This document shows, one piece after another, positions 41,993-50,634 of a DNA stretch of 64,000 nt. The position numbers were made by a program, and so were the translations under genes. The notes below the pieces were generated by a model. The model saw only the letters and a list, made by a program, of their open reading frames with translations, was not told the DNA's origin and made no database searches. Positions within the stretch are counted from its first letter, which is position 1, and every line of letters begins with the position of its first letter. The stretch is from Armatimonadota bacterium (GTDB taxonomy: Bacteria > Armatimonadota > HRBIN16), in the NCBI GenBank assembly GCA_963677485.1, contig OY781964.1, positions 1,024,001 to 1,088,000 of the forward strand, read 5' to 3'.

Positions 41993-42290
41993 CTCACGCG
42001 AAGACGCGAATGGGAAGACTTCATCCACAGATGACGCAGATGGCACAGATTAGGCGGTTGGATGCGCGAGGATTCGGTATGGTAGCGATCCTAATTGGCT
42101 ATGTCCGGGGCGGTCTTTCAGTACGCTGGCGATGACAGAAGGCTATAGACCGCGCCGGTCTGGTTCGAAGGCGGGTGGCTATCGGCACGAAGGATTAAGG
42201 GATTCATTTCTGAACCACGAATGAACACGAAGGAACACGAATGGAGAGGATGCATCCACAGATTACGCAGATGGCACAGATTAGGCGGTT
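41993..42290. repeat. Mosaic repeat cluster next to the IS110 insertion
   Basis: TCACGCGAAGACGCGAA; ATCCACAGAT.ACGCAGATGGCACAGATTAGGCGGTT twice; family B (42093-42161); TCTGAACCACGAATGAACACGAAGGAACACGAAT. Confidence 0.88.
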
Positions 42291-42596
42291 AACGACACGG
42301 GTTTGTCTGCAGATATCCAGCGTAGATACTGTGGCTTTTGTCAAGTCCCCAGGGGCAAATCTGGGGATTTGGACCTGAATATCAGACACTGGCTCTAGAC
42401 CACGTAGAATAACGTTAATGTGATGTTTGTGGCATATAGACCAAACCTGGATCCGCGTCAGAAACAGGCTCAGATGGCATCAGTTGGTCCGTAGCACCTC
42501 ACATGACGCTCGGAGTCGCGAACGGACGTGCGACATCTTCGTGGCTTCGAAAGATATCGTTATGCTTCGATGCGTGCTATCGGCAGACTGCCGCAG

Positions 42597-43889
42597 CTAG
42601 GATACTGGTGTCAGAACCCTCGGTTTGTTGCCCACCCGACTGCGCGATGGCCGGTTTCGGGATGCGGGCCGACCACCGCCGGCAGGAGTGGGCTCATTGG
42701 TGGGATTTCCATCCACGCATCCCCGTCTTGGAACGCTCACGTCCAGCCCAGGATCATTGCCTACACCGGCTATATCATGGGCCGCTCCGGCACGATCCTG
42801 GACATGTCCGTTCGCGTCGGTCAGCGGTTGCTGGTTGGCCGCATTTGAAGCTTGTTCGATGCCGAAGTTTGGATCATATGGCTGACGGCTGATTAATACC
42901 GACCACATGAGCACCAGCTGCTTGCGCATGATTGCGCACCGGACAACTCGCTTGGACTTCGGTTTCTTATTGGGATTCTTTACCAAATTCGGATGCTGCA
43001 GTTCCTTCACGAAGTCGTGCATGCTCTGGCCAAGCTTTTTCGACTTACCGTTGACCATCTTCACCACAGTGCTCGATCCACAGTAGAGTAATGTCCGCAT
43101 ATATCGGTCACCCATCTTGGATATGGAGCCGTCGTATGTCTTGCAGCTTCCTGACCGTTGCGGGCAGGGGTTCATTCCGAAATAGCGCGCGACCGCTTTC
43201 GATGTTTCAAATCGTTTAGCATCACCGATTTTCGCAAGGAAATAGCTTGCTGTGACGTCGCCGATACCCGGAATGCTCTTCAGCAGAGCCATATCTTCGG
43301 TCATCTGCGGTGAACTCATCACAAGCTCTTTGATCTGAACATCAAGCTTTTTGATGCCCATGTCATGAAAAGCGATCATCTCGTCCAGCACTGTGCTCCG
43401 CGTAAGCCGACAGCTTTGGCGCTGGGCGATCGCCTGTCTGTGTTGCACCAGCATACGGCGGTCATTGGTGTAACCAATAAGCGCATCATAGCATGCTAGA
43501 CGAGGGACATAGAGTGAGACATTGTGACTTTTCACATAGTCAGCGATTAGCACGCTGTCAGAGCAGTCCGTCTTTTGTTCCCAGCCTTTGGCTTTGCGGT
43601 GATAGAGAACCCGTTTTGGCTCCAGTTGGACAGCATCGTGCTGGTGCTCGTAGAGGTAATCAAGCAGCGGTCGGCTGTAAGGCCCGGTGGCTTCAGCCGC
43701 ATACAAGGCGGGAGTTCGGGTAAGCTTCTTCACCCATGACAACAACTCCTTGTATCCGGCCTTGTTGTTCTTGAACTCCTTATGGTCTATCGGCTTGTGC
43801 GATGAACCTAATACAGACGCGTCAAACGTCAATTTCGAGATGTCGATCCCGACATAATGGATGTAGATTTTGTCTTCAACTTCGTGCAT
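42597..43889 (-). CDS. IS110-family DEDD transposase / bridge recombinase
   Basis: VGIDISK, EATGPY, KTDCSD (DEDD), SIPGIG, PQRSG (catalytic Ser), ISKMGD..MRTLLY, AIMRK; ATG 43889 after GGAG. Confidence 0.95.
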   Translation of the reverse strand: MHEVEDKIYIHYVGIDISKLTFDASVLGSSHKPIDHKEFKNNKAGYKELLSWVKKLTRTPALYAAEATGPYSRPLLDYLYEHQHDAVQLEPKRVLYHRKAKGWEQKTDCSDSVLIADYVKSHNVSLYVPRLACYDALIGYTNDRRMLVQHRQAIAQRQSCRLTRSTVLDEMIAFHDMGIKKLDVQIKELVMSSPQMTEDMALLKSIPGIGDVTASYFLAKIGDAKRFETSKAVARYFGMNPCPQRSGSCKTYDGSISKMGDRYMRTLLYCGSSTVVKMVNGKSKKLGQSMHDFVKELQHPNLVKNPNKKPKSKRVVRCAIMRKQLVLMWSVLISRQPYDPNFGIEQASNAANQQPLTDANGHVQDRAGAAHDIAGVGNDPGLDVSVPRRGCVDGNPTNEPTPAGGGRPASRNRPSRSRVGNKPRVLTPVS

Positions 43890-43924
43890 GTGGTAATCTC
43901 CAGTTGGTAGTGATTGATGGTGCA

Positions 43925-44120
43925 ATCAACCAAATCAGCCTAGCGAACACGGGGTTTTCTCCCAAGATACTGTTCGATATGGGTTGATTGGGAGAAGGAT
44001 GCCTATCTACGTCACGGTGTTTTCCACCAGGGGCGGTTCCGGCATCCAATCCTTCTCCTTCACCCCCAGCTAAGGGGTGAGATTAGCTCCCCGACTGCTT
44101 TTGGTGTCCGGGGAGCTCAC
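43925..44120 (-). ncRNA. Predicted IS110 bridge RNA
   Basis: 5' hairpins, then target loop ACCGCCCCT (44037-44029) / GACGTAG (44013-44007) and donor loop ACAGTATCT (43973-43965) / CTAG (43943-43940), which match the element's own target and ends. Transcript ends are approximate. Confidence 0.85.
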
Positions 44121-44276
44121 CATATATAGCGTACTAGGGGCGATTCGCGAATCGCCCTTCTAGCGTCGGTGGTGTGCTGTGTATCTACGAATAGACACGA
44201 ACGTCGGAACGTAAAAGGCATCTGCTGCCTCCGGTATTCGGACCTCAACACGTTCACGTGAATTGTAAATGCCATC

Positions 44277-46070
44277 CTACCTGCCCGCATCCTTCAACAA
44301 CCCGTATTTCGCGGCAGGAACCATGATCGAACGGTCATACAGTTTCATGGCTTCCCTATCGGCCGGTGATACCACCTCGGTGGGTGAGAACAACAGCGTG
44401 TCCCGTGACCACGCCGCGGCGTCTTTTGCGGTGAACAGAGGGTAGGCCACGAAGCTCAGCGTCAGCCAGAGCACTGCCATCGACACAGCCAGTCCGCGAG
44501 TCCATTCGAACAACCACTCCTTGCGGGCCAACGGTTTGGTTGCAAGAAGCAACACCACTGCGATTGCCAGAGCAAACAGAGCGGAGTAGCACGCCAGACC
44601 ACCCAATGCCAGCAACACCACCAACAGACCCACGAACACCATGAAGTGAGGTCGTTTGGTCAGCGCGCCCATCCTGCGAGACAGCCACCAGACAGGCAGT
44701 ATCAGGCAAAGAACGGTCGTAACCGCCAGTTGCACCACAAACGACATTTGCGCCACACCTGGGCCGTACTGCCGCGACATCAAGCTGGGCACGAGCAGCA
44801 GCAGACCATATACCGCCCATGGCATCAAAGCCAAAGCCGCCGCAATACTCAAATCCTTACGCGAATACTGCCATTCAGAGCCTGCCAGAAACGCACAGCA
44901 CAGCAGCAATACCACCAGTATACCGCCTACGAAGACACTGAGTGTGTTGGCCACTACCCGTTCGAATACCGCTTGCTCCGCTGTGCGTAAGGGTTCGATG
45001 TTTTTAAGGGTAATGTTCGCATTTCGGTCCAGGCAGATGGCACTCAACACGCTGCCGTGCTGTGAGATGATGTTGTCACTCTCAGAATTGTCATGTGGCT
45101 TGTTCATCTTCTTGACTTCTTGAACATAACCACTGTAACGCTGAGCTCTAGTTGCGTCACCAGCGATTTTAGCTACCTCTGCGGTGGCATTAGCCAGCAT
45201 TGATATACAGGCTTTGTATAACATCACATCGATCACAGCATATAGCTTACCCTGTTTGAACTTGAATATCGGCTGTTGCCAACGTCGTGACATCTGGTCG
45301 GCCTGCTTCACCTGACCATTCCGCGCCAGGTAGACCATCATGGCACCATAGTTTCTTGCGAACGTCCTTTGATAGGACAGCATTGGATGCAGACTTTCGG
45401 AACTCACCTCAATTCGGGCCAACTGGTGTTCCGTGAGATATGGCGGTTTGATGTTGCGCATACGGTGGCGTTCATATTCGGTGGTGTAGTCCGACAATAT
45501 CGGCGATGAGAGCGCCTTCTGCGCGTAAGCTAGTGCTTGGGGCAGTGCCGTCGGACGGGTAATGGTAATGCCCGACCAGGTTTTCGTCTTGATTTTATCG
45601 GTGTCCAAGCCTGCTTCACGGAACGCCTCGTTGGCCAGCATCATAGGGTAGAGCGCGTTGGCGGGATCATCTGCCATATATGTGGTCAGCAGCGCAATCC
45701 GCGGTTGGGGTTCCTTCGGCAGCCTATATAGAAATCGCGCGTGCGTCCAGTTCCGCAGCTCAATCGGTTTGTTTCGGGAATCGCGCAGCAGCTTATCAGG
45801 TGAGCGGTCAGCCTCCAGGGAGAAGGCTACATCACGCCAGTTCTGATCTGTCACTAACAGTCCGGAGAGAACTGGTGGGATTTTGACTCCGAAGCCAAAA
45901 CTCGAATCGTCGTCGTGAACGTAAAACTGTCTGTACCACTCCATCACGCCCATCAGCGGGACCCCACGATGGCCAAGCCATGCATTCGTGGCCAGCACCA
46001 GCACGGCGGCCAACAACGGCCACCAGCGGATTCGGCGGGATGGTTTTGATGCTACGATGGTGTCTGACAT
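44277..46070 (-). CDS. Hypothetical membrane protein (paralog 1)
   Basis: N-terminal TM, large helical domain, C-terminal TM bundle; shares motifs with the next gene. Confidence 0.75.
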   Translation of the reverse strand: MSDTIVASKPSRRIRWWPLLAAVLVLATNAWLGHRGVPLMGVMEWYRQFYVHDDDSSFGFGVKIPPVLSGLLVTDQNWRDVAFSLEADRSPDKLLRDSRNKPIELRNWTHARFLYRLPKEPQPRIALLTTYMADDPANALYPMMLANEAFREAGLDTDKIKTKTWSGITITRPTALPQALAYAQKALSSPILSDYTTEYERHRMRNIKPPYLTEHQLARIEVSSESLHPMLSYQRTFARNYGAMMVYLARNGQVKQADQMSRRWQQPIFKFKQGKLYAVIDVMLYKACISMLANATAEVAKIAGDATRAQRYSGYVQEVKKMNKPHDNSESDNIISQHGSVLSAICLDRNANITLKNIEPLRTAEQAVFERVVANTLSVFVGGILVVLLLCCAFLAGSEWQYSRKDLSIAAALALMPWAVYGLLLLVPSLMSRQYGPGVAQMSFVVQLAVTTVLCLILPVWWLSRRMGALTKRPHFMVFVGLLVVLLALGGLACYSALFALAIAVVLLLATKPLARKEWLFEWTRGLAVSMAVLWLTLSFVAYPLFTAKDAAAWSRDTLLFSPTEVVSPADREAMKLYDRSIMVPAAKYGLLKDAGR

Positions 46071-46078
46071 AGTTTCTC

Positions 46079-47782
46079 CTATTTTGCCGGCTTTGTAGCG
46101 ATCTCTCGAAGTAGTTCTACGATGGGACGATTGTTTATCCTCACACTGAGCTGTTCGGCTGGTGAAGGGGTGCCATCTCTGGAGATCACGAAGTTCTCAC
46201 GTGCCCAGGCGGATTGCTCTTTATGCACAAACATCGGGTAGATCAATCCTATCTGAATTATCCAGAGCAAGAACCAGGCGACGGGCACATCGGGCAGTGC
46301 GAACAACGCCTTCAGCGATACCTGCCGACGCTGTTTCAGCACGAACACCGGCAGCACGAAGCTAAAAAGTGCCGAAAGGCCTACGCCCCACACGATCTGA
46401 CCGCCCATTACCGCTACGCTCTGTGCTCGCGGCCAGAATGCGGCATATAATCCGTACAACACCCATGGAATCATCGCATAGCATAGCGACCACAAGGTTT
46501 CTTTCCAACTAAAGGCATATAATTCGGTCTTGCCGCCACCATTCGATAGCTTTGTGGCTATCAGCATGACGATCAACGCCAGGCCTAATACCACGCCAAG
46601 CAGCAGGCTGGTTTTGACAACCATGTAGCGTTCCAGAAAGCTCTGCTCTGCGCTGCGGATGGGCTCATATCGGGCGGCGGGTAACGGGTTGTAGGCATAC
46701 AGCATCGTCACCACATGGGCGGTATAACCGCCATATCTTAACGTGTGATCCACATTAAAGCCGTCCCTGTCCTTGAATACCTTGCGTATCTTCTTGGCGA
46801 GGTTGTTGTATTTCGCTGCGCCTTCGCGATCACCTAAAAGCGCGGCCGTCTCCGCATTCGCTCGCATCAGCACCGAAGTGCTGGATGTTAGGCCCGTGTT
46901 GCCGAGATATGATTGGGTGGTCTCCAGACGATGCAGCAAGGTTTCTGGCCAGGCAGCCATCATCCGTTTGGCTTGTTCTCGTTGGCCTGTGCGTGCCAGA
47001 TATCGCATCGCATGAGCATATTGCCGGCAAAACCACTTATCGGTGGTGACGGGACCATATGTAAATGTCTGTAACTCCGATTGTGCCACCACTTCTTCAG
47101 ACAGAGTCACCGGCTCAATACCCTTTTGATAAGGCCACAGCACCTTGGAGCTGTAGGTGTTGATCTCCTTCAACCGCATCGCTTCAGCCGCATACCCCAA
47201 CGCTGTTTGGAACTGCACTGCACTTTTCAACGATGTGAGCTGCACTTTAGACGAATCAGGCACCCCGGCAGCGGTGAACGCCAGGTTGGCCAGGCAGATC
47301 GGGTAGATTGCATTCTGCGGATCCTGCTTCATGGCTCCCAACAGAAACTGCTGGCGTTTCTCCGGTTGGCGGCTATAGATGCGGTCAGTGACGGCTGCTG
47401 CGAAGTATTTACGCATCGGCTCGGGGTTCGAGTCGATCATCTTCTGGGTGACATGATACACATCTGGAACCCGATTTTGCGATATCTTCCGCCACCGCGG
47501 GTCGGTCTTTGCGAGTGCCTCCAGGGGAAACGAAGGCGTGCTACTCGGGGTGAGTCTATCTACGACATCCTGCACCTGACGCGATAGTCCATACTTGGAC
47601 CACTGAGGATATTGGCTCCTAATCCTGTGAATTTCTACAATGTCGTTGACCGTAGAATCCAGAGGCTGAGTCTTGCGGATCAACGCCGCTTCACCCGCCA
47701 TCAACAGCACCAGCAGCATGAGCAGCAGTGCCCATCTGCGGTCTGGGCGGGTGGTTTTCGGTGTTTTCTCGCTGTCCGTCAT
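46079..47782 (-). CDS. Hypothetical membrane protein (paralog 2)
   Basis: ATG 47782 after GAAGGAG; the longer ORF start is repeat-derived. Confidence 0.75.
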   Translation of the reverse strand: MTDSEKTPKTTRPDRRWALLLMLLVLLMAGEAALIRKTQPLDSTVNDIVEIHRIRSQYPQWSKYGLSRQVQDVVDRLTPSSTPSFPLEALAKTDPRWRKISQNRVPDVYHVTQKMIDSNPEPMRKYFAAAVTDRIYSRQPEKRQQFLLGAMKQDPQNAIYPICLANLAFTAAGVPDSSKVQLTSLKSAVQFQTALGYAAEAMRLKEINTYSSKVLWPYQKGIEPVTLSEEVVAQSELQTFTYGPVTTDKWFCRQYAHAMRYLARTGQREQAKRMMAAWPETLLHRLETTQSYLGNTGLTSSTSVLMRANAETAALLGDREGAAKYNNLAKKIRKVFKDRDGFNVDHTLRYGGYTAHVVTMLYAYNPLPAARYEPIRSAEQSFLERYMVVKTSLLLGVVLGLALIVMLIATKLSNGGGKTELYAFSWKETLWSLCYAMIPWVLYGLYAAFWPRAQSVAVMGGQIVWGVGLSALFSFVLPVFVLKQRRQVSLKALFALPDVPVAWFLLWIIQIGLIYPMFVHKEQSAWARENFVISRDGTPSPAEQLSVRINNRPIVELLREIATKPAK

Positions 47783-47874
47783 TTTCGCTCCTTCGTGGCT
47801 TGTGGCATGTTGTACCAAACCCTTGGCACGGCACAAGGTTGATTCGTGAATCGCACCGTACCTTACCGGAATAC

Positions 47875-47937
47875 CCTTCGCGTCTTCGCGTGAGACCGTT
47901 CCGAACAATAGAAGGGCGATTCGCGAATCGCCCCTAC
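47875..47937. repeat. 8-mer tandem repeat plus intact REP-like palindrome
   Basis: CCCTTCGCGTCTTCGCGTGAGAC; AGGGCGATTCGCGAATCGCCCCTAC. Confidence 0.85.
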
Positions 47938-48099
47938 CCACCAGATCGCGCTGTGTGTCTCGTTTTTCGATATATGCATTAGTATACAACCGTTGAGACG
48001 GCTTGAATTAGGCTGACATGGGTGGAACGCGGTATCATGTGAAAAACAACAACAGATTCAAAGCACATTACACTGGTGACCCAATGCAGGAGGCACCCG

Positions 48100-50634
48100 A
48101 TGACGATACTACCAGTTCCACAGCAGTTGCAGCATGTAAACGACGAGATGCCGATCACTCTTCTTCGCGAAATGACGCTGATGGTACCCAACGACAGTCA
48201 GGAGAGCCTCCGCCGCCATATCAAGGAGTTGTGCGATGAAGCCCGCATCAAGTACAAGCTGAGCATCAGCGCACTAAATGGTTTTATGCTGAGTGCGGGC
48301 GCGGCGAAGACAGGCGGCAAGGGATCTGCCTTTAGCGAGCAGGCGAAGCAGCAGGGGTATCGGCTGGATATCCGCCCAGAAGGACTTACGCTGACCGCCG
48401 AAACCGAGCAGGGGCTGTTCTACGGCTTGATGACGCTGCGCCAGATTCTGCTGGAAGCGAAGAGCGAACGCCGACGCGGCATCGCCGCTGTCAGCATTGT
48501 GGACTGGCCAGCCATCGAGATGCGGGGTTATCAAGAGGACTACGGCCGTGACCAGCTCTCCACCATGGAAGACCTGAAACGCACCGTCCTGCGTCTGGCT
48601 CAGTATAAAATGAACACCTTCTTGATGTATATCGAACCCGATCATTTTGTTTACAAGTTTGATCCCAATATCAGCACCGACTATGACCGGTTCACGATGG
48701 CTGAAATCCGCGATCTCGTCGCCTATGCCAAGCGATACTATGTGCAGATTATCCCCGTGGTGGAGCTGCTGGGCCATACGGAGATGCTGCTGCGTCACGA
48801 ACGGTATAAACGCATTGCCGAGATGCCCACCGGAGGTGGTGACCTCTGCCCCACCAGCGAAGAGACCTGGGAGGTGGTGGCTAAAATCGTCAACGAGTTG
48901 GCACCCGCTTTCAACGGCAAGTATTTCCACACGGGCCTCGATGAAAGCATGGCCATCGGTCAAGGCCGCAGCAAAGAGGCAGTGGATAAGTACGGCATCG
49001 CGAAGGTCTACGCGGATTATTACAACAGGCTGAACCGGCTGATCCGCAAGCACGGTCAGACGATGATGATGTACGGCGATATCGTGATGAACCACCCCGA
49101 CATCTTAACCATGCTGGACAAAGACATCGTGCTGATGAGCTGGGACTATATCCCGCAAGAACGATACGGTTCGCTGGACAGGTTCTCACAGTTGGGCTTC
49201 AAGACCACATCCTTAAGCGGCCTGTGGGACTGGAGGCAGGCCTACCCGTTGGGCGGGGCGACCTTCAAGAACATCGACACCTACACCAAACAGATCGTTG
49301 AGGTAGGCGCTTTAGGGCACTTCGTGAGTGACTGGGGCGATGGGTACCACGGGGCCAACGGCAAAAACTTGAGCGAAAACAACGACATGAGCGCTGTCTA
49401 CTGCGGCTGTTCGGGTTGGAGTGCGCGCCCTATACCCATCCGCGAGTTTGTTCCGATGTATTGCCAGACCTACTATGGCAGCTCGGACCCGCAGCTTTCC
49501 GGAGCACTGACGAACCTGGCCCTGGCTCAAGGTGAGGGGGTTGAGCGCAGCTATCAGGCGCTCATCATGCAGTGGGGGGATTTCCGTCCGAAGATATTCA
49601 GCATGTTCGAGGTGTCAGATGAGGAGATGCGCTTCTGGAGGCATATGGGGGAGACGGCTGAACAGGCGATTCAGGTTCTACACCGCCAGCGCCTGCCTCG
49701 CAACGGTGACCGACTGGATGCCGTGATTGTGGCGGCCCGCCATCTGGTCATGGCTTCGCAGATGGCCATGGGTGCCTCGCAGATCGTAAAATTGGTAGAC
49801 CAGCCCACGCCTGACAAATTATCTACCGAGGCCATACTAAGGCTACTCATCAAAAATCAAACCAGCCTGGGCAAGGATTACCGCACGGTCTACCTGCGGC
49901 GAAACCGGCCACTCAATATGAACCACATTCAGAAGGTATGGGAATACACCATCGGTTGCCTAAAATCTGTTCTAGCTGACCTGAAGGCAGGACGGCTGAC
50001 TTTCAGCACCCCCAAGGCGATGGTGGCCATGTGGCGGTTTGATCATAAAGCTCCCTGGGAGAGCCTGCCCAAGGGCCTCACGCTCACACCAAAAACGTCA
50101 GATGCCACCATCGGCGCACTCTCTAGTGGAGAAGGGTATGTGATGCTGCGCAACGGCGTCTACTTGAGTGCGATTGACAGTAAACGGCTATTGGACTTCG
50201 GTCAGCGCTCCTTTACGGTGGAGCTTTGGACGCGGCATCATGGCCAGAAGCCGCAGCAGTTCGGCAGCACCTTCTTTAGCGATGGCGTGGGCTGGCGGGT
50301 GGGTGTGAACAACAGCCATCAGATCACGTTCACGCTGTATGGTGTGTCCGACATACTCTGTCCCAGCGCGGTGCTGCCGCCAGATGGTCAGTGGCATCAT
50401 GTGGCCATCAGCTTCAGCTATTACCACAAGGTTCATTTCTACGTGGACGGCGTGCTGAAGCAGCAGATGGAGCTGGCGGGCAGACCGAACAGCACCGAGA
50501 ATCCTATGCTGCTTGTGGGCAACGAATCTGGGCTTGCGACGCCCTATGTGGGTGACATCACCAGACTGCGGGTTCACTCCGGCGCATTAACCGCTGATGA
50601 GCTGGACAGCAAGTTAAGCCCAGTGCAGTTGTAG
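48100..50634 (+). CDS. GH20 beta-N-acetylhexosaminidase-like protein with C-terminal LamG domain (copy 1)
   Basis: QGYRL, GLFYGLMTL, DWPAIEMRG, LLGH, catalytic HTGLDE; WHHVA..FYVDG. Confidence 0.88.
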   Translation: MTILPVPQQLQHVNDEMPITLLREMTLMVPNDSQESLRRHIKELCDEARIKYKLSISALNGFMLSAGAAKTGGKGSAFSEQAKQQGYRLDIRPEGLTLTAETEQGLFYGLMTLRQILLEAKSERRRGIAAVSIVDWPAIEMRGYQEDYGRDQLSTMEDLKRTVLRLAQYKMNTFLMYIEPDHFVYKFDPNISTDYDRFTMAEIRDLVAYAKRYYVQIIPVVELLGHTEMLLRHERYKRIAEMPTGGGDLCPTSEETWEVVAKIVNELAPAFNGKYFHTGLDESMAIGQGRSKEAVDKYGIAKVYADYYNRLNRLIRKHGQTMMMYGDIVMNHPDILTMLDKDIVLMSWDYIPQERYGSLDRFSQLGFKTTSLSGLWDWRQAYPLGGATFKNIDTYTKQIVEVGALGHFVSDWGDGYHGANGKNLSENNDMSAVYCGCSGWSARPIPIREFVPMYCQTYYGSSDPQLSGALTNLALAQGEGVERSYQALIMQWGDFRPKIFSMFEVSDEEMRFWRHMGETAEQAIQVLHRQRLPRNGDRLDAVIVAARHLVMASQMAMGASQIVKLVDQPTPDKLSTEAILRLLIKNQTSLGKDYRTVYLRRNRPLNMNHIQKVWEYTIGCLKSVLADLKAGRLTFSTPKAMVAMWRFDHKAPWESLPKGLTLTPKTSDATIGALSSGEGYVMLRNGVYLSAIDSKRLLDFGQRSFTVELWTRHHGQKPQQFGSTFFSDGVGWRVGVNNSHQITFTLYGVSDILCPSAVLPPDGQWHHVAISFSYYHKVHFYVDGVLKQQMELAGRPNSTENPMLLVGNESGLATPYVGDITRLRVHSGALTADELDSKLSPVQL

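Follow-up and report, generated by a model that had tools for sequence, protein, structure and literature searches.

An IS110-family element interrupts a REP-like palindrome

The window analyzed here, meaning the whole stretch of 64,000 nt, covers positions 1,024,001 to 1,088,000 of contig OY781964.1 (assembly GCA_963677485.1) of an Armatimonadota bacterium (GTDB lineage HRBIN16). Positions 42326-44135 of this window hold, on the minus strand, a 1810-bp insertion sequence (IS) of the IS110 family, referred to below as IS1, which interrupts a short palindrome resembling repetitive extragenic palindromic (REP) sequences. The host genome (G000) is a single contig of 5.22 Mb, and it was compared with a genome of the same genus that does not carry IS1 (G001). 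The features of the insertion locus are as follows.

42326-44135, minus strand: IS1, IS110-family insertion sequence (12 full-length alignments, identical ends)
42597-43889, minus strand: gene for a recombinase/transposase of 430 aa, comprising a DEDD RuvC-like domain, a Transposase_20 domain and ~90 aa of C-terminal tail (domain and homologue searches)
44136-44137, minus strand: core dinucleotide CT, 5' copy; AG on the plus strand, where it belongs to the GTAG head of the palindrome (12/12 copies have CT on either side)
42324-42325, minus strand: core dinucleotide CT, 3' copy, a 2-bp duplication; AG on the plus strand (sequence and flank comparison)
44136-44162, plus strand: longer piece of the split REP-like palindrome, which belongs to the AT subfamily within the family centred on TTCGCGAA (excision match; uninterrupted orthologue in G001)
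42322-42325, plus strand: detached GTAG head of the interrupted palindrome (excision match)
47909-47937, plus strand: intact inverted palindrome of the AT subfamily, which as a target (ATCGCCC-CT-AC) has one mismatch and is empty (2 of the 24 ATCGCCCCTAC sites, to which it belongs, are occupied)

The recombinase carries the domains PF01548 (E = 1.8e-21) and PF02371 (E = 4.4e-22), and scores 180.6 bits against the NCBIfam model NF033542, 'IS110 family RNA-guided transposase', for which the cut-off is 140. Its best relative of solved structure is the IS621 transposase (8wt6_A; E = 2.5e-28, residues 10-274). Five metagenomic proteins (P0001-P0005) are 61-95% identical to it, and IS110 relatives of 306-375 aa, 25-32% identical, cover just ~55-80% of the 430 aa. 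The C-terminal tail of ~90 aa (window 42597-42870, residues ~340-430) is conserved in the eight closest proteins (42-95% identity) and absent from the 306-375-aa relatives. A search with this single protein for related loci in genome contigs and metagenome contigs returned nothing, and its alignment-based repeat gave loci at most 43% identical. All family features that could be tested were found, and the element is a member of the IS110 family.

A BLAST search against the whole genome returned 12 copies of IS1, all of which align over element positions 1-1810 with 99.0-100% identity. Their ends are identical (AGTACGCTATAT...AAGCCACAGTAT) and lack terminal inverted repeats (the left end begins AGTACGC..., the right end closes with ...CACAGTAT). 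In element orientation, every copy has CT on both sides, the junctions reading ...CGCCC-CT before the left end and CT-A(C/T)... after the right end. At seven of the 12 sites no stop-to-stop frame of at least 150 aa runs across the insertion, at three more the upstream stop of the frame is 0-22 codons away and two are ambiguous, by a crude frame check of the insertion sites only. All copies fall within 0.72-3.30 Mb, around the cumulative GC-skew minimum at ~2.14 Mb, and they showed no orientation bias by replichore.

The sequencing runs were consistent with this picture. Contigs assembled from runs X1, X3 and X5 break at 42323/44142 and carry IS1 at the window site, and the depth over IS1 was ~9-11x that of the flanks in these runs (in X5 it ranges from ~9 to 22x along the element), consistent with ~10-12 copies. 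In run X6, from a relative ~92-95% alike, one contig has 2101 unrelated letters between 41981 and 44274, and the depth on IS1 was zero.

The interrupted palindrome could be restored computationally. Joining 42322-42325 to 44138-44162 yields a 29-mer that is identical in 29/29 positions to the reverse complement of 47909-47937, as the first-pass annotation of this DNA had claimed. That annotation had also suggested that an empty site be sought in related genomes, and in G001, where the neighbouring genes are 87-90% identical, the orthologous place holds the uninterrupted palindrome plus GCGT directly before the orthologous gene; the best match to the recombinase in G001 is 42% identical. These data bear on the origin of the apparent site specificity, which would be artefactual if the palindrome halves were part of the mobile unit, or if the copies arose by duplication of the IS together with its flanks. 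The same type of palindrome does adjoin every IS1 copy. Yet the adjoining arm differs among copies (ACC, ATC, AAC, CCC, CCGCCCC), the DNA outside the palindrome is unique at all 12 sites, 22-24 members of the subfamily are unoccupied, and the G001 orthologue is uninterrupted where IS1 is absent. The variable flanks and the empty orthologous site thus refute this explanation, to which we assign practically no likelihood.

A predicted bridge RNA with loops matching the target and the element ends

The left non-coding end of IS1 comprises 246 nt (element positions 1-246) upstream of the gene. Its minimum free energy (MFE) fold consists of a 5' stem-loop followed by two stems, each enclosing an internal loop. 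In a consensus fold of five homologous left ends (IS1 and four sister elements, described below), 80 pairs were formed, 14 of them with compensatory changes in both partners, and the guides lie unpaired within the internal loops. The fold of the left end is supported by these compensated pairs and by the unpaired state of the guides. The predicted elements are listed here.

43918-44123, minus strand: predicted bridge RNA of approximate extent, made up of a 5' stem-loop and loops for target and donor binding (MFE fold and consensus fold)
44029-44037, minus strand: left target guide (LTG) ACCGCCCCU, in which seven bases of the target are followed by the CT core (equal to left flank plus core in 6/12 copies; 1-3 differences in the other copies)
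44007-44012, minus strand: right target guide (RTG) ACGUAG, complement of CT-ACGT (fold; the same in all five aligned elements)
43965-43973, minus strand: left donor guide (LDG) ACAGUAUCU, matching in 9/9 positions the right end ACAGTAT of IS1 followed by the CT core (read from the element)
43940-43943, minus strand: right donor guide (RDG), contiguous part CUAG, complement of CT-AG, where CT is the core and AG the start of the left end (read from the element)
42339-42344, minus strand: TTGACA in the right end, 13 nt from the last element base, a tentative -35 box of a circle-junction promoter (picked out by eye)

Within the first loop, the LTG lies on the 5' side and the RTG on the 3' side, with a small hairpin between them. 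The second loop holds the LDG and the CUAG of the putative RDG. This is the loop layout that Durrant et al. described for IS621, in which the left guides repeat the top strand, core included, and the right guides form its complement, with an LTG of nine bases, an RTG of four and a target of 11 bp. The target ACCGCCC-CT-AC(G), which the first-pass annotation took to be encoded by the guide, is read directly in the 5' non-coding end from ACCGCCCCU and ACGUAG. On the genomic side, the right flank starts with AC in 11/12 copies and with ACG in 4/12. Junction promoters have been described for IS110 elements; for IS1, we infer from the DNA that the RNA would be expressed, that a circular intermediate with a junction promoter would form and that the recombinase would be catalytically active.

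The host genome holds many hairpin families that share one foot

The motif CGCCCCTAC occurs 228 times in the host genome, as compared with ~60 occurrences expected from base composition. After the IS1 copies had been removed by script, 650 GCCCCTA sites were grouped into 306 clusters, 27 of which have at least three members. These larger clusters are mostly GC-rich hairpins in which the upper stems and loops differ; the largest have 114, 31 and 28 members and predicted hairpin energies of -10 to -21 kcal/mol, and all listed families end in CCCTAC (GTAGGG on the other strand). In REP sequences, one end of the palindrome is a conserved GTAG head, and the repeats found here are, as REP sequences are by definition, short, GC-rich, imperfect and multicopy palindromes. 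All ten window positions at which the first-pass annotation had pointed out such feet (13661, 13740, 16611, 16677, 47937, 13513, 22881, 59747, 59790 and 59905) do carry CGCCCCTAC/GCCCCTAC or the complement. It had called the families otherwise unrelated, which probably does not hold: they have a common stem base as well as the foot, and in this they are comparable to the REP classes of E. coli.

One family, centred on TTCGCGAA (GGGCG-N-TTCGCGAA-N-CGCCCCTAC), has 34 members in three subfamilies that differ by a compensated stem pair. It spans 0.57-4.21 Mb, with a modest switch of orientation near ~2.14 Mb (8+/3- vs 5+/12-). Comparison between genomes gave family totals of 82 in G001, 29 in G000 and 0 in genome G002, and the perfect target ACCGCCCCTAC occurs 60 times in G001, as three intact and six filled sites in G000, and not at all in G002. 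Among 40 of the 60 perfect G001 sites that were sampled, 17 have collinear flanks in G000, where 11 show no such repeat, three another foot, two a member of the AT subfamily and one a member of the AC subfamily. The repeats therefore turn over quickly, with gain and loss being indistinguishable from this comparison of two genomes.

A feature of REP sequences is a cognate REP-associated tyrosine transposase (RAYT) gene flanked by them, and the genome encodes three proteins with the Y1 transposase domain PF01797. The genes of all three are flanked by other inverted repeats, and the foot motif was absent from the 700 bp around each. The best NCBIfam score was that of an IS200-type model in 3/3 cases (two above the cut-off and one just below it, 52.2 vs 55 bits), and all three are far below the REP_Tyr_transpos cut-off. 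A cognate RAYT flanked by the same REPs was thus not found among the three PF01797 genes, and we therefore term the palindromes 'REP-like'. A RAYT as the cause of the shared foot was considered and rejected, the three Y1 genes being flanked by unrelated repeats. At two of the Y1 loci the arrangement is RAYT-like despite the IS200-type scores, each gene being flanked by at least two of its own inverted hairpin units of 58-60 nt (locus L001, 1277-1462 and 1978-2349; locus L002, 1147-1381 and 1968-2123).

Site choice depends on the distal bases of the guide

For an analysis of site choice, the 12 IS1 copies and one core each were removed by script, and every CT of the genome was scored against ACCGCCC-CT-AC. 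Occupancy fell steeply with mismatches: 6/9 sites without a mismatch were filled, 4/166 with one, 1/935 with two, 1/5299 with three and 0 of ~585,000 with four or more. The occupied one-mismatch sites differ solely at positions -7 or -6 of the left target (C at -7, 1/45; T at -6, 2/24; A at -6, 1/7), and the window copy, in ATCGCCC, is one of these one-mismatch insertions. No one-mismatch site was occupied if the mismatch fell within -5 to -1 or on either of the two bases to the right of the core.

All 12 insertions lie at the CT of a hairpin foot reading ...CCC-CT-A(C/T), with a GC-rich stem-loop 5' of the core; ten of the feet end in GCCCCTAC, one in GCCCCTAT and one in CCCCCTAC. The first-pass annotation had held that insertions outside such foot-ended repeats would speak against its idea of an element programmed for the foot, and none was found. 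Ten of the 12 are in the TTCGCGAA-centred family (10/34 members; Fisher p = 4e-13). The remaining two are in a degenerate GGGGTGACCCCGCCCC hairpin (one mismatch) and in a GGGAAACCCGCCCCC hairpin (three mismatches).

This distribution separates a guide for one subfamily from a guide aimed, in effect, at the common foot CGCCC-CT-AC, through which several unrelated families would be opened at comparable rates. In favour of the latter, the foot is common to many hairpin families, two of the 12 insertions, one in a CCCGCCC and one in a CCCGCCCCC hairpin, lie in other families, and of the two copies that a sister IS has in the host genome, one occupies a family that differs from its guide by two mismatches. 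The rates, however, were far from comparable. The shared 9-mer occurs at 238 sites, of which 10 are occupied, and when these are divided by the two preceding bases, the occupancy is 6/9 for AC, 2/24 for AT, 1/7 for AA, 1/45 for CC and 0/93 for GA, which is the commonest class and corresponds to the feet of the 114-member family. If the foot were used uniformly, at least six insertions in the AC class would have a probability of 7e-8, and none in the GA class one of 0.006. The two largest foot-sharing families likewise hold 0/114 and 0/31 insertions. We consider a guide directed at the foot unlikely. The distal bases -7 and -6 of the guide lie in the family-specific stem and dominate site choice, and one guide reaches other families as rare off-target events (2/12 for IS1; 1/2 for the decayed sister IS of the same genome). 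The proposal of the first-pass annotation, that one guide gives access to several repeat families, thus stands for the occasional cross-family insertion and fails as a general description, with 10/12 insertions in one family, the largest families empty and a guide that extends two bases beyond the shared foot.

The hairpin itself may also be recognized. The nine perfect 11-mers include seven in an intact hairpin GGGCGGTTC(G/T)CGAACCGCCC with an 8-bp stem, of which six are filled and one, at genome position ~3,624,470, is not, and two outside such a hairpin, of which none is filled. Together with the GC-rich stem-loop found 5' of the core at all 12 insertions, and with a preprint that reports a logic of sequence plus stem-loop experimentally for ISPpu10, this points to dual recognition, in which the target's own stem-loop would be a second required determinant beside pairing with the bridge RNA. 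However, the difference between 6/7 and 0/2 gives a Fisher p of 0.083, one occupied one-mismatch site was scored 'no hairpin' by the stem test, and sequence and structure are confounded, with nearly all good matches lying in hairpins. Dual recognition is a real possibility, with the odds somewhat against it.

Separately from the insertions, we observed hairpin feet that continue into CT-AGTACGC, the first 7 nt of the IS1 left end following the core, with no IS present. There are five such sites in G000 (~264919, 1981809, 2001678, 2368488 and 3414988, in coordinates after removal of the IS1 copies) and eight in G001 (645909 and seven others), compared with three for a reversed control pattern. 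They belong to at least three hairpin families, and the next base is G in 4/5 sites, where IS1 has T. These feet could be footprints, half-site products or an unrelated extension of the repeats.

Sister elements carry retuned guides on a constant foot

A sister IS ('IS2') was found in nine copies in G001, in two decayed copies in G000 and on the metagenome contigs L024-L026. Its recombinase is 42-45% identical to that of IS1 and has the same long C-terminal tail; its left end is TGTATGC (AGTACGC in IS1), while the right end CACAGTAT-CT, the RTG ACGUAG and the architecture of the bridge RNA are the same. Like IS1, it occupies REP-like hairpins, with the insertion at the CT of a CCC-CT-ACG foot. 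Both copies in G000 are decayed: one has an internal TAG in the recombinase gene, and in the other (L153, 2667677-2672300) the gene is split by ~2.5 kb of inserted DNA lying between matches to residues 5-134 and 125-414. We also considered an in-frame TGA inside a sister recombinase and rejected it in favour of a plain stop after residue 400, beyond which there is little similarity.

In these elements the left guide changes together with the left flank, and the four guides of the sister IS each match a different hairpin family. IS1 has the guide ACCGCCC and the flank ACCGCCC. The IS of G001 has the guide GTCATCC and, in the hairpin GGATGACCACAAGGGTCATCC, the flank GTCATCC in five of six copies read, the sixth having GCCATCC, with a mismatch at -6. 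Guide and flank are GTCATCC and GTCATCC on L026, GTGGCCC and GTTGCCC on L024, and CGTGCCC and CATGCCC on L025. The sister IS of G000 has the guide CGCGCCC, with one copy in a perfect CGCGCCC hairpin and the other, two mismatches off, in a CCTGCCC hairpin of another family. Across IS1 and the sister elements, the constant part of the target is CC-CT-ACG and the variable part corresponds to the distal guide.

Such co-variation also bears on recognition by protein only, in which the recombinase would read the GTAG/CTAC foot and the match to the RNA loop would be coincidental. A conserved protein surface could in principle read the constant CC-CT-AC, and co-variation cannot separate the constant RTG from a protein contact. 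Against this, five loop 7-mers co-vary with five flank 7-mers among recombinases 42-45% identical to that of IS1, occupancy varies with bases -7 and -6, which the shared foot does not include, and the homologue IS621 is RNA-guided according to the published work on it. Recognition by protein only is, in our judgment, very improbable.

With variable distal guides on a constant foot, access to several families therefore comes mainly from retuned guides rather than from one guide. This leads to a tentative proposal, which we would put at a little short of even odds: an IS110 lineage may have spread across sibling REP-like families in one genus by changing solely the distal 3-5 bases of the LTG, with the RTG and the proximal bases anchored on CC-CT-ACG. 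The shared foot would then be a constant half-site that makes jumps between families mutationally cheap, mismatched spill-over would be the first step, and IS and repeats may chase each other. Co-variation of guide and target across IS110 orthologues has already been published by Durrant et al.; our literature searches on IS621/IS110, REP, REPIN/RAYT and bridge RNA listed no account of guide retuning across REP families within one genus.

Other repeats and genes around the insertion

Between the interrupted and the intact palindrome of the window lie two open reading frames on the minus strand, 44277-46070 (597 aa) and 46079-47782 (567 aa), which by eye are membrane-like with repeat-like N-terminal halves; no Pfam family was found for either at E of 0.001 or better. 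Just left of IS1, at 42093-42164, is a repeat of ~70 nt containing a palindrome with GACCGCGCC...GGCGCGGTC-like arms. At least 40 of 48 listed matches to it are in G001, at 77-96% identity, and its word depth in run X1 is ~58x that of the flank. It is a separate and very abundant family resembling miniature inverted-repeat transposable elements.

A further repeat, consisting of short CACGAA/CACGGAT-like units and ...CATCCACAGAT(G/T)ACGCAGATGGCACAGATTAGGCGG, occurs twice left of IS1, at 42020-42058 and 42253-42291. Related units flank, in inverted orientation, one of the three Y1 (IS200-like) transposase genes (locus L003, 1119-1307 and 2152-2190), and this gene may mobilize the CACGAA/CACGGAT-type family.

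Discussion

We interpret IS1 as an active or recently active IS110-family element that works like IS621, using a bridge RNA to target one subfamily of REP-like hairpins, with spill-over to mismatched sites, and we assign this interpretation a probability of roughly 0.85. In the mechanism that we envisage, the target loop would specify the 11-bp site ACCGCCC-CT-AC through a 9-nt left guide (ACCGCCC+CU) and the right guide ACGUAG, of which CU+AC would be the most important part, and the donor-loop guides would recognize the ends of IS1 itself once joined (ACAGTAT-CT-AG...). IS1 would be inserted, and the CT duplicated, through recombination at this dinucleotide. The 11-bp site would correspond to the 3' arm and foot of one hairpin subfamily (GGGCGGTTCGCGAACCGCCC-CT-AC), its CT being complementary to the AG of the GTAG head. 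IS1 would have nearly filled the perfectly matching hairpins (6/7), and then spilled at much lower rates to sites mismatched at the two distal positions, the window copy included, with rare entry into hairpins of other families that have a CCC-CT-AC foot.

Several observations weigh against this interpretation. Pairing of the putative RDG is contiguous over just 4 nt (CUAG) and non-contiguous further in; Durrant et al. describe the pairing of the RDG with the right donor as discontiguous in IS110 elements. An Rfam E-value scan of 42000-48300 returned no family, and a search for sigma-70-like promoters in the linear element (43800-44300) gave 0 sites. Neither a circle junction, joining the right end to the left end, nor a clean empty window site was seen in the contigs of X1, X3, X5 and X6. 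A 16-nt deletion splits the recombinase frame in 2/12 copies. The insertion at genome position 2863787 has three mismatches in the left target and is poorly explained by base pairing alone. Finally, the occupancy figures were obtained in a single genome, on the assumption that sites are exchangeable.

The closest known system is IS621, which shares with IS1 the two protein domains, a left-end bridge RNA that precedes the gene, the CT core and an 11-bp target of the form 7+CT+2. Both target sites consist of the 3' arm of a REP hairpin together with its foot and have the same register (ATCAGGC-CT-AC for IS621, ACCGCCC-CT-AC for IS1); in both systems, the guide discriminates between REP classes with a common foot, and natural sites with one mismatch are used. 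The natural target of IS621 is reported as ATCAGGCCTAC, with 144/173 mapped insertion sites in REPs, and its commonest natural target as being one base off the target encoded by the loop. IS1 differs in its guide, host lineage and repeat family, in its length of 1810 bp and in being known from sequence alone; its recombinase has 430 aa with a clade-specific tail, compared with a chain of 328 residues in IS621, and the alignment with the latter covers only residues 10-274.

Other elements with fixed positions in REPs were listed by Tobes and Pareja (2006), namely ISPpu10 and ISPpu9 of Pseudomonas putida, ISPa11 of P. aeruginosa and ISRm19, with every copy at one fixed REP position and association ratios of 7/7, 7/7, 6/6 and 4/4. 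Their hosts and REP sequences differ from those of IS1, and ISPa11 further belongs to the IS1111 group, in which the RNA is downstream of the gene. ISPpu10 resembles IS1 in that its left target is, according to the preprint, the 3' arm of a GC-rich stem-loop, and the requirement for the stem-loop is shown there, whereas for IS1 it is just hinted at by the occupancy of perfect sites in and outside hairpins. Targeting of REPs by IS110 elements, and its basis in the bridge RNA, are already established by IS621 and ISPpu10, and the core finding presented here is confirmatory.

What IS1 adds is a natural, genome-wide profile of specificity, in which perfect sites are near-saturated and tolerance lies only at the two distal positions of the guide, in agreement with laboratory mismatch screens of IS621; this profile could guide off-target models for bridge recombinases. 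A shared repeat foot alone does not make many families equally accessible. The five left guides, the constant right guide and the sibling hairpin families in related genomes form a natural series, and with it a comparative set for the reprogramming of bridge RNAs in nature.

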